Source of the DNA: an uncultured Planctomycetales bacterium
GTDB taxonomy: Bacteria > Omnitrophota > Gorgyraeia > Zapsychrales > Fredricksoniimonadaceae
Assembly (NCBI GenBank): GCA_964572155.1
Contig: CAZNDZ010000001.1
Span: 412,630 to 476,629 of the forward strand
Direction of reading: 5' to 3'
Length of the DNA: 64,000 bases
Position numbers and translations under genes: made by a program. Below are positions 31,660 through 61,975 of this stretch, piece by piece. How positions within the stretch are numbered: position 1 is the first letter of the stretch; each line of letters begins with the position of its first letter. Below the pieces are notes generated by a model. It was not told the DNA's origin. It searched no databases and saw only the letters and a program-made list of their open reading frames with translations.

Positions 31660-31732
31660 GCCGAGATAGCTCAGGTAGTAGAGCGCGGGCCTGAAAAGCC
31701 CGGCGTCGACAGTGCAAGTCTGTCTCTCGGCA
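31660..31732 (+). tRNA. tRNA-Phe (anticodon GAA) with non-canonical T-loop UGCAAGU and D-loop A18
   Basis: Cloverleaf folded by hand: acceptor GCCGAGA/TCTCGGC, anticodon loop CTGAAAA, 73 nt, near-identical to E. coli tRNA-Phe apart from the elbow. No encoded CCA. Confidence 0.75.
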
Positions 31733-31830
31733 CTTTTTTCCTCCCATCACAAATTCTTCAAAAAATAGTGAAACTTTTAAGCGCCTGTCCTTGTCTAAAT
31801 GATTGAAACAATCAAACCAAGGAGATTAAC

Positions 31831-34027: not shown

Positions 34028-34100
34028 GCTGGCGTAGCTCAGTTAGTAGAGCAGGGCATTCGTAATGCTCAGGCCGGGGGTGCAATTCCTCTCGCCAGCT
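34028..34100 (+). tRNA. tRNA-Thr (anticodon CGU) with non-canonical T-loop UGCAAUU and D-loop A18
   Basis: Hand-folded cloverleaf: acceptor GCTGGCG/CGCCAGC, anticodon loop TTCGTAA, 73 nt. Preceded by TTGACC-17-TATAAA. Confidence 0.65.
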
Positions 34101-45333: not shown

Positions 45334-45653
45334 CGCGGGGTGGAGCAGCCCGGTAGCTCGCCAGGCTCAGCACGTAACATGGGCGTCTAGTTGAGAAATC
45401 AATTAGAAGATTATCTGTCAAAGTCGGTGAAGCCTGAAAATGGTAATACCGAGCCAAGTTCCGATTACCTCAGAAATATTTAGGAAATCGGAAAAGGTGT
45501 AGAGACTAGATGGCAGACGTCCTCCTCGAAAGAGAGGATGAAGGTATAGTCCAGACCACAAACCGTGAACCCAACGTGGTTCATGGGCGGCGAAAGTCGT
45601 AGATGGTACGCATAACCTGGAGGTCATAGGTTCAAATCCTGTCCCCGCAACCA
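45334..45653 (+). tRNA. initiator tRNA-fMet (anticodon CAU) interrupted by a group I intron; exons 45334..45367 and 45611..45653, CCA encoded
   Basis: Exons join to CGCGGGGTGGAGCAGCCCGGTAGCTCGCCAGGCT|CATAACCTGGAGGTCATAGGTTCAAATCCTGTCCCCGCAACCA. This is almost identical to E. coli tRNA-fMet and has the C1xA72 initiator hallmark. Confidence 0.8.
45368..45610 (+). ncRNA. group I self-splicing intron (243 nt) in the anticodon loop of tRNA-fMet
   Basis: R-like element GTGTAGAGACTAGA (45497-45510). S-like element AAGGTATAGTCC (45541-45552) forming P7 (GACTA/TAGTC). P8-like hairpin CCTCCTC-GAAA-GAGAGG. The 5' exon ends in U and the intron ends in G (45610). No ORF inside. Confidence 0.65.
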
Positions 45654-45697
45654 ATAAAAACAGACAGTTCCTTTTGGGGCTGTCTGTTTTTATTTTG
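45654..45697 (+). terminator. rho-independent terminator after tRNA-fMet
   Basis: AAAAACAGACAG-ttccttttgggg-CTGTCTGTTTTTATTTTG stem-loop plus T-run. Confidence 0.7.
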
Positions 45698-45803
45698 TTA
45701 TGTAAGCAGGATTTGAGTGAGCCCTGTTTAGAACTCCGACGAATAGGAGGAGTTCTAGGGCGAGTGGCTGACCCGCAGAGAGCCGGAGGCGAACGAAGGG
45801 CAC

Positions 45804-45864
45804 CAAATCCTGTTCCCGCAACCAATAAAACAGCAGTCCCTTTTGGGGCTGCTGTTTTATTTTG
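45804..45864 (+). repeat. near-identical direct repeat of the tRNA-fMet 3' end plus its terminator (copy of 45633..45697)
   Basis: CAAATCCTGTTCCCGCAACCAATAAAACAGCAGTCCCTTTTGGGGCTGCTGTTTTATTTTG versus the first copy, with only a few mismatches. Confidence 0.6.
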
Positions 45865-45914
45865 TTTCTAAGAAAGATCTTTTCAAATGACTCAAACGAT
45901 ATCAAAATACATTT

Positions 45915-46334
45915 ATGGATACAAAATTAAAAGCTGATATTGCTGAATCTGCTGTAGTGACAGAGCTGTTATCAAGAGGGTTTGTTGTGTTGCGTCCTGT
46001 TGGTGATAGGTTGGCGTATGATTTGGCGGTTGAAGTTAATAAGAAATTGATTCGCATTCAGGTAAAACATGCATGGTTTAATGTAAAAGATAATGTTTAT
46101 GTTACTGATGCGCGTAGGACAAAAACAAATCGTAGGGTAATGTTACGAAAGAAATATTCCGACGATGATTTTGATTTCGCCATTGTATATTTAGGGGATA
46201 AAAAAGTTTTTTACGTGATTCCAAGTAAGGTATTTAATGGTTTTGCTAGTTCAATAAGTTTTGTAGAAGATGAAAAAAGGCAACGTGCTCCCAAGACAGC
46301 GATCTATAGAGAATGTTGGAAATTATTGAAATAA
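45915..46334 (+). CDS. PD-(D/E)XK nuclease-fold protein, Hjc/restriction-endonuclease-like (hypothetical)
   Basis: ESAVVTELLSRGFVVLRPVGDRLAYDLAVEVNKKLIRIQVKH matches the Hjc-type E...GF.V.R...D(L)...(I)(Q/E)VK catalytic pattern; 139 aa. Confidence 0.45.
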   Translation: MDTKLKADIAESAVVTELLSRGFVVLRPVGDRLAYDLAVEVNKKLIRIQVKHAWFNVKDNVYVTDARRTKTNRRVMLRKKYSDDDFDFAIVYLGDKKVFYVIPSKVFNGFASSISFVEDEKRQRAPKTAIYRECWKLLK

Positions 46335-61884: not shown

Positions 61885-61975
61885 AACGATAAAGGCAAAC
61901 CCAGAGTAATCTGGGGACGCAAAGCCATGGATCCTTATAAGTCTCAAGGACAGCCAGGTTACCGAAACCGCAAGC
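61885..61975 (+). promoter_or_regulatory. c-di-GMP-I (GEMM) riboswitch aptamer
   Basis: GGCAAACC-[CCCAGA GTAA TCTGGG hairpin with GNRA loop]-GACGCAAAGCC-[P3 hairpin TCCTT...AAGGA]-GCCAGGTTACCGA. Matches the GEMM consensus blocks GGCAAACC / GGACGCAAAGCC / CC.GGUUACCG. About 70 nt of expression platform precedes ATG 62043. Confidence 0.75.

Follow-up and report, generated by a model that had tools for sequence, protein, structure and literature searches.

The 64-kb stretch of DNA analysed here, referred to as the window, contains an initiator tRNA gene, tRNA-fMet(CAU), into which a 243-nt group I intron of the IC3 type, without an open reading frame (ORF), is inserted between U33 and C34. A gene for a homing endonuclease related to I-Ssp6803I stands free downstream of the tRNA. 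Taken together, our results make it probable that the split gene gives rise to a self-splicing precursor. That the free-standing endonuclease serves the homing of the intron in trans is plausible, with a chance somewhat below even. The intron is of a known type (fMet 33/34 IC3), first described in cyanobacteria, and is found here in a new host phylum. The Omnitrophota host, the family context at the locus, and the combination of an ORF-less intron with a free-standing gene are new. The intron had been proposed earlier from the sequence alone (the original prediction); the endonuclease gene, which lies outside the segment considered then, proved to be the more informative feature.

The split tRNA-fMet gene and its intron

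The Rfam model Intron_gpI (RF00028) matched positions 45358-45569 with 74.9 bits against a gathering score of 50 (E=3.5e-17), and ARAGORN with intron search reported tRNA-Met(cat) i(35,243) and drew a 77-nt tRNA-Met(CAU) cloverleaf from the joined exons. The sequence at 45334-45653 consists of CGCGGGGUGGAGCAGCCCGGUAGCUCGCCAGGCU, 243 nt of intron, and CAUAACCUGGAGGUCAUAGGUUCAAAUCCUGUCCCCGCAACCA. The 5' exon (34 nt, 3' end ...GGCU) and the 3' exon (43 nt, CAUAACC...ACCA) would meet after splicing as ...CGCCAGGCU-CAUAACCUGGAGG..., or CGCCAGGCUCAUAACCUGGAGG when written as the junction duplex. With default settings, ARAGORN reported only tRNA-Phe and tRNA-Thr in the window and missed the split gene, as had been anticipated for standard tRNA scans. 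Default scans will thus make genomes of this phylum appear to lack an initiator tRNA at the locus.

All elements of a group I ribozyme are present (Table 1), namely P1 with a U.G pair, P10, the P3/P7 pseudoknot, P4-P6, P8, P9, and the terminal G, and the catalytic core from P3 to P8 spans 45414-45552. The R-like element AGAGACUA (45501-45508) and the S-like element UAUAGUCC (45545-45552) pair to form P7 (GACUA/UAGUC), and the GAAA-capped hairpin noticed in the original prediction is P8. P1, which had not been resolved by eye, is now drawn together with the rest of the structure up to P10, the P3-P7 core included. The L1 loop has 10 nt, at the place that holds the endonuclease ORF in relatives. 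The dinucleotide CA is ambiguous at both intron ends because the ligated exon sequence GCU-CAU finds its complement in the guide AUGGGC (45379-84). Among the three junctions that this allows, only 33/34 gives both a 5' exon ending in U and an intron ending in G, in line with the U(-1)/omega-G rule (U45367.G45382 in P1, and G45610). An unconstrained fold of the whole precursor yielded P2, P3, P4, P5, P6a/b, P8, P9a, and P9b (z=-4.45).

That the insert is an assembly chimera, or that the true junction is 34/35 or 35/36, is scarcely credible. The CA repeat does permit three junctions, and a 99.4%-identical contig (L001, SRR30545106) ends at window position 45360, inside the 5' exon, which would fit strain heterogeneity or a repeat. 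However, an independent, 97.6%-identical assembly (L002, SRR12901020) carries the same insert, and the eno-ftsB-tRNA-fMet site is likewise occupied by an intron in over 60 genomes, most of them Omnitrophota. No junction other than 33/34 yields U(-1).G in P1 together with a terminal G, and the published class has this junction.

The cores of 66 homologous introns, aligned with MAFFT, support the predicted helices P2-P9 by covariation. In this alignment, 39 named pairs were compared with controls in which the 3' partners were slid by 1-3 columns and with 500 shuffles. Standard pairs occupied 96.7% of the cells, against 28-42% in the slid controls; 23 pairs were altered on both sides, and none of the 500 shuffles reached the observed values. 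Changes on both sides affected four of the six pairs of P3, all five of P8, and at least one pair each of P4, P5, and P7. At none of the 53 invariant core columns does the window intron depart from the consensus. The P1 pairs are unable to covary, the exon bases being fixed; a guide of the form (U/A/G)GGG(C/U) lies directly 5' of P2 in approximately 57 of 62 members (the motif occurs in 61, four of them mis-anchored), and P2 is a GNRA-capped hairpin with variable stem sequence in 56 of the 62.

By analogy with other group I introns, the precursor probably splices itself in a guanosine-dependent manner. Free guanosine would attack after U33, and the 3'-OH of U33 would then attack after G45610, joining U33 to C34 in the mature tRNA-fMet.

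One observation concerns the periphery of the intron. In the L002 strain (positions 589-798 against window 45413-45616), the same intron carries a wholly different P6 hairpin and has 249 instead of 243 nt, which looks as if near-identical introns had exchanged a peripheral element.

Table 1. Positions of the split tRNA-fMet gene, its intron, the spacer, and the free-standing endonuclease gene in the window.
Feature	Position	Strand	Basis
tRNA-fMet 5' exon (tRNA positions 1-33, last base U33)	45334..45367	+	ARAGORN (joined exons; intron search)
Group I intron, IC3 type, 243 nt, ORF-less, starts CA, ends ...UACG	45368..45610	+	Rfam RF00028; alignment with IC3 introns
P1, GCU-CA with UGGGC; U33 (45367) pairs with G45382	45365-69/45380-84	+	sequence
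P10, AUG with CAU of the 3' exon	45379-81/45611-13	+	sequence
P2 hairpin, 9 bp, GAAA tetraloop	45386..45407	+	fold; GNRA-capped hairpin in homologues
P3, pseudoknotted with P7	45414-19/45512-17	+	covariation
P4	45424-29/45447-52	+	covariation
P5 (minimal)	45433-34/45442-43	+	covariation
P6	45454-55/45496-97	+	covariation
P6a/b	45459-45493	+	covariation
P7	45504-08/45547-51	+	covariation
P8, GAAA loop	45520-45538	+	covariation
P9 three-way junction	45555-45607	+	covariation, fold
P9	45555-59/45602-07	+	covariation, fold
P9a	45563-71/45578-86	+	covariation, fold
P9b, GAAA loop	45587-91/45596-600	+	covariation, fold
omega-G (terminal intron base)	45610	+	
tRNA-fMet 3' exon (C34 through encoded CCA)	45611..45653	+	ARAGORN
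Intrinsic terminator-like hairpin and T run after the tRNA	45653..45694	+	
Stably folding spacer, about 105 nt; 3' arm enters the duplicated tRNA fragment	45700..45812	+	fold, z=-4.0
Diverged second copy of tRNA positions 57-77 (45804-45824) and second terminator (45824-45861)	45804..45866	+	
Free-standing homing-endonuclease gene, 139 aa, I-Ssp6803I / PD-(D/E)XK (PF11645)	45915..46334	+	PDB 2OST, Pfam

The joined exons give a complete initiator tRNA of the natural type that has A-U as the first of the three pairs 29-31:39-41. The spliced cloverleaf shows the C1xA72 mismatch, the CAU anticodon, and A11:U24, the T-loop is UUCAAAU, and CCA is encoded. The description of this tRNA as almost textbook holds for the mismatch, the anticodon, the T-loop, and the CCA end, but not for the anticodon stem CCAGG/CCUGG, in which A29-U41 precedes G30-C40 and G31-C39, so that two of the three consecutive G-C pairs at 29-31:39-41 are present. 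An 'au/GC/GC' stem occurs naturally as a documented exception, namely in all alpha-proteobacteria and in some mycoplasmas (PMC5389676). A29-U41 is also the majority state among the related loci, and a metagenome scan for intron-less initiator genes with this pair found at least 120 stretches. The stem is treated here as a variant and not as a ground for excluding initiator identity. Neighbouring tRNA-Met genes at L016 and L026 were considered as intron-less initiators and rejected, as they are of the elongator type (G1-C72).

It is very improbable that the split gene is a dead pseudogene or does not splice, with a working initiator tRNA encoded elsewhere. Such a reading could appeal to the 64 kb of the genome that are visible and to the departure of A29-U41 from the three-G-C rule. 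It is opposed by intact exons with the other initiator marks, by the match at every invariant core column, by the formation of every helix, and by the conserved eno-ftsB-tRNA-fMet site, the A29-U41 pair being both the majority state and a known variant (PMC5389676). No other initiator tRNA gene was detected within the window, which covers only part of the genome. If the split gene is the only one, all translation initiation in these small-genome bacteria would hang on self-splicing of the ribozyme.

The fMet 33/34 class ('fMet.2Ug') is one of the four classical bacterial tRNA intron classes, all of them IC3, and is included in a survey of 5292 tRNA group I introns (10.1101/2020.01.27.920355). 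A 2026 survey found tRNA group I introns in 18 phyla; its Table S5 lists fMet 33/34 IC3 introns for Bacteroidota and Cyanobacteriota, according to its text 33/34 is also one of the main positions used in Pseudomonadota, and PF11645 genes are reported only inside the fMet introns of two cyanobacteria (PMC13011429). The earlier view that such introns are rare in bacteria beyond cyanobacteria is therefore no longer tenable. The window intron, which sits at 33/34 of an initiator tRNA and has both U(-1) and the terminal G, aligns across the P3-P9 core and the P9 junction with five cyanobacterial and Bacteroidota introns of that table, and its assignment to IC3 is one by alignment with introns so classed. 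The Bacteroidota introns are likewise ORF-less and in a non-cyanobacterial initiator tRNA; however, they have 303-305 nt with large P1/P2 extensions unlike those of the window, and no neighbouring endonuclease was reported (PMC13011429).

The cyanobacterial fMet introns, including that of Synechocystis PCC 6803, align end to end with the window intron and share with it the gene, the U33/C34 site, the (U/A)GGGC guide, the core, and the P9 three-way junction, and the Synechocystis endonuclease I-Ssp6803I is homologous over its full length; other cyanobacteria have forms of the intron that lack an ORF. They differ in that the window belongs to an Omnitrophota host, has the endonuclease gene outside the intron, has P1 cut down to 5 bp with a 10-nt loop, and has the anticodon stem CCAGG/CCUGG instead of UCGGG/CCCGA. 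The introns of Azoarcus tRNA-Ile and Anabaena tRNA-Leu are small IC3 ribozymes of the anticodon loop with the core AAGGUGUAGAGACUAGAYGGCA, a short P1, and GNRA tertiary contacts. They have these features in common with the window intron, whereas the tRNAs, the sites (36/37 and 34/35, respectively), and the P9 region are different.

The endonuclease gene inside and beside the intron

The free-standing gene begins 262 nt past the CCA of the tRNA, on the same strand. Its product matches PDB 2OST over residues 2-138 (E=1e-38) and Pfam PDDEXK_5 (PF11645) with 138 bits against a cut-off of 26.1 (E=2.7e-40). The product keeps each of the 52 columns with a conservation of 95% or more in 56 homologues, E11, D36, and Q49-V-K51 among them. 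We take E11, D36, Q49, and K51 to be catalytic from the work on 2OST, the deposited chain of which has Q at position 11. I-Ssp6803I is reportedly encoded inside the tRNA-fMet intron of Synechocystis and said to cut the intron-less tRNA-fMet gene at the anticodon stem-loop. The window gene lies outside the intron at whose site its product is expected to cut, and by location the enzyme would be named F- (free-standing) rather than I-. Among phages and viruses, only distant matches of 28-37% identity in six phage records (four distinct phages) were found, and none in IMG/VR.

One genome per species was scanned with the window endonuclease ORF, giving 69 loci with a best identity of 70-71%. According to their record titles, 42 are Candidatus Omnitrophota/Omnitrophica metagenome-assembled genomes (MAGs), 15 are 'uncultured Planctomycetia/Planctomycetales', a few have other labels, and one is Nostoc sp. 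CCCryo 231-06. The tRNA-fMet locus of the window sits downstream of eno-ftsB in the order ftsH-eno-ftsB-tRNA-fMet, which most of the related loci share, and the window enolase is 83% identical to that of the Omnitrophota MAG ND2_Bin_17 (L032). Because of this synteny and enolase identity, we conclude that the host is an Omnitrophota bacterium. In the literature searched, no link between Omnitrophota and tRNA group I introns was found. The 'cyanobacterial' fMet intron and its PD-(D/E)XK endonuclease are widespread in Omnitrophota.

Of the 61 related loci whose tRNA could be recognised, 50 have a homologous endonuclease ORF inside the intron. These introns mostly have 620-675 nt, and the ORF starts in the P1 loop, 2-9 nt past the 5' splice site, and often stops at the UAG of the conserved GUAGAGACUA in the ribozyme core. 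Many of the in-intron ORFs (L003-L062) have 145-189 aa and run through the guide, P2, and even P3-P6, so that coding sequence and ribozyme overlap. Approximately nine of the 50 are disrupted (L029, L055, L059, L061, L062, L063, L066, L067, and L071). Eleven loci, the window and ten others including Nostoc, combine an ORF-less intron of 193-244 nt with a free-standing gene. This gene lies 54-268 nt downstream on the same strand in the window, L032, L048, L049, L051 (Nostoc), L054, and L070, about 1.1 kb downstream in L015 and L068, and adjacent on the opposite strand in L058 and L069; the copy in L068 is a remnant of 37 residues.

In a neighbour-joining tree of the endonucleases, midpoint-rooted and without support values, the free-standing proteins are scattered. 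Those of the window and L032 are sisters, that of L049 pairs with an in-intron protein, that of L015 shares 90% identity with in-intron ones, and those of L054, L058/L069, L048, and Nostoc L051 branch near the base. Since the free-standing proteins are scattered in this way, the switch between a place inside and a place beside the intron happened several times. Together with relics of tRNA sequence, the tree suggests that both directions of the switch may have occurred.

Around the free-standing genes, tRNA or intron relics were detected only in the window, L048, and L058. In L048 and L058, the gene is followed within 50 nt by pieces of the tRNA-fMet 3' exon (positions 42-61/71 and 38-56), as though a second copy of the tRNA, now decayed, had once housed the gene. 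An 11-nt match to CAUAACCUUGA upstream of the L032 gene, seen by eye, was below significance in the relic search and was discounted.

The tRNA-fMet locus seems to gather nuclease genes. The intron of L063 has approximately 1268 nt and contains a second large insertion with an ORF, placed in the ribozyme core after the 5' strand of P7 and before the 3' strand of P3. An ORF that appears similar by eye stands free downstream of the tRNA in L068, and the spacer of L015 contains an ORF with an HNH motif.

Possible homing in trans and its alternatives

Based on the homology to I-Ssp6803I, the free-standing enzyme would cut tRNA-fMet genes that lack the intron, within their anticodon stem-loop. The host gene would be shielded by its own intron, which splits the pseudo-palindromic site CCAGG CU-CAUAA CCUGG, and repair of the break from the window locus would co-convert the intron and the nearby endonuclease gene into the intron-less allele. 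No uninterrupted copy of the predicted target was found elsewhere in the window. Among the metagenome stretches with intron-less initiator genes, L169 has the order eno (69% identical)-ftsB-tRNA-fMet with neither an intron nor an endonuclease gene at the syntenic site, and its exons are almost the same as at loci that carry the intron. The window thus combines an ORF-less intron with an endonuclease gene 262 nt off, and a related genome provides an empty allele, a single example.

Collaborative homing of this kind is known from phages, where the psbA intron of S-PM2 is served by F-CphI and the I-TevIII intron of T4 by mobE (PMC3984707). As in these phage systems, the target expected for the window enzyme, judged by homology, is the insertion site of the intron (PMC3984707). 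In contrast to them, the window is part of a cellular chromosome, the split gene encodes a tRNA and not a phage protein, the enzyme belongs to the PD-(D/E)XK type with a putative activity, and the fused state, with the ORF inside the intron, is the majority in the family. The locus is therefore a plausible chromosomal example of collaborative homing. We put the chance that the free-standing enzyme still works in this way somewhat below even. If it does, this would be the first case of collaborative homing for the PD-(D/E)XK family.

Several points weigh against such activity and against the interpretation as a whole. Splicing and cleavage are both deduced from homology and from group I chemistry. 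No sigma-70-like promoter was detected ahead of the window endonuclease gene, which two terminator-like hairpins separate from the tRNA. The free-standing proteins are on long branches, the nearest relative of the window protein (L032) being 70% identical, and this could reflect relaxed constraint. The lack of the first of the three G-C pairs in the anticodon stem belongs here as well, and so does the scope of the search for other tRNA-fMet copies, which covered the window. Moreover, the locus collection was seeded with the endonuclease and is silent on the frequency of introns without any endonuclease.

Some of these points would fit a different history, in which the ribozyme works, the intron is immobile and inherited vertically, and the endonuclease gene, having escaped from the intron, survives as a leftover that is inactive, decaying, or re-purposed, in a late phase of the homing cycle. 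We regard this history as possible but doubtful. Decay is common in the family, as indicated by the disrupted in-intron ORFs and the L068 remnant, the L015 protein is a sign of movement out of the intron, and the lack of a predicted promoter, the two upstream terminators, and the long branch of the window protein agree with it. However, the window ORF has its full length and retains every conserved column, the putative catalytic residues included, despite a divergence of approximately 30% from L032, which argues for continued purifying selection. In addition, the side-by-side layout is found in at least nine intact cases, including Nostoc.

The opposite order of events, in which the free-standing state is ancestral, the endonuclease invaded the P1 loop later, and the window keeps an early stage, is unlikely. 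The basal position of L054, L058/L069, L048, and Nostoc L051 is what it would lead one to expect, but this position comes from a midpoint-rooted tree without support in which long branches may be misplaced. The proteins of the window and L032, L049, and L015 are nested among in-intron ones, and the tRNA fragments after the L048 and L058 genes look like relics of an earlier position within the tRNA.

More tentatively, homing by collaboration between intron and enzyme would place all these states in one natural series at a single locus: empty, ORF-less with a free-standing gene, fused in P1, and decayed, with the window perhaps representing a working case in a cellular chromosome. If this is true, repeated transfers of the gene into and out of the intron would open the origin of mobile introns to direct testing. 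The fused and side-by-side pairs, the several switches, and the empty site form a natural test bed for the formation of mobile introns. To our knowledge, this process has so far been documented mainly in phages.

The spacer and other features of the window

Between the tRNA and the endonuclease gene, the 3' end of the tRNA and its terminator are present as a direct repeat (45633-45699 against 45804-45866, approximately 88-91% identity) that flanks the spacer. The spacer reached no Rfam family at gathering score; BSnc120 scored 32.8 against 114 bits, mostly through similarity in the terminator. It occurs once in the window and is absent from the related loci, and for this reason it is not supported as a miniature inverted-repeat transposable element (MITE). 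The duplicated fragment starts within the T-loop, which is the crossover place of many integrases, and therefore the segment 45654-45866 may, as a hypothesis only, be the remnant of a small element that integrated at the T-loop and left an att-site remnant. By the same hypothesis, the endonuclease gene would lie approximately 90 nt from the tRNA without this segment, as in L049, L051, and L054.

The other two tRNA genes of the window, tRNA-Phe(GAA) at 31660-31733 and tRNA-Thr(CGU) at 34028-34100, have the D-loops AGGUAGUA and AGUUAGUA, with A in place of the expected G18, and the T-loops UGCAAGU and UGCAAUU, with G in place of the expected U55/Psi55. The near-universal G18:U55 pair seems to be replaced by A18:G55 in both, whereas the tRNA-fMet exons keep the canonical GG and UUCAAAU. 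A c-di-GMP-I-GGC riboswitch aptamer was found at 61885-61967 on the forward strand, with 69 bits against a gathering score of 59.

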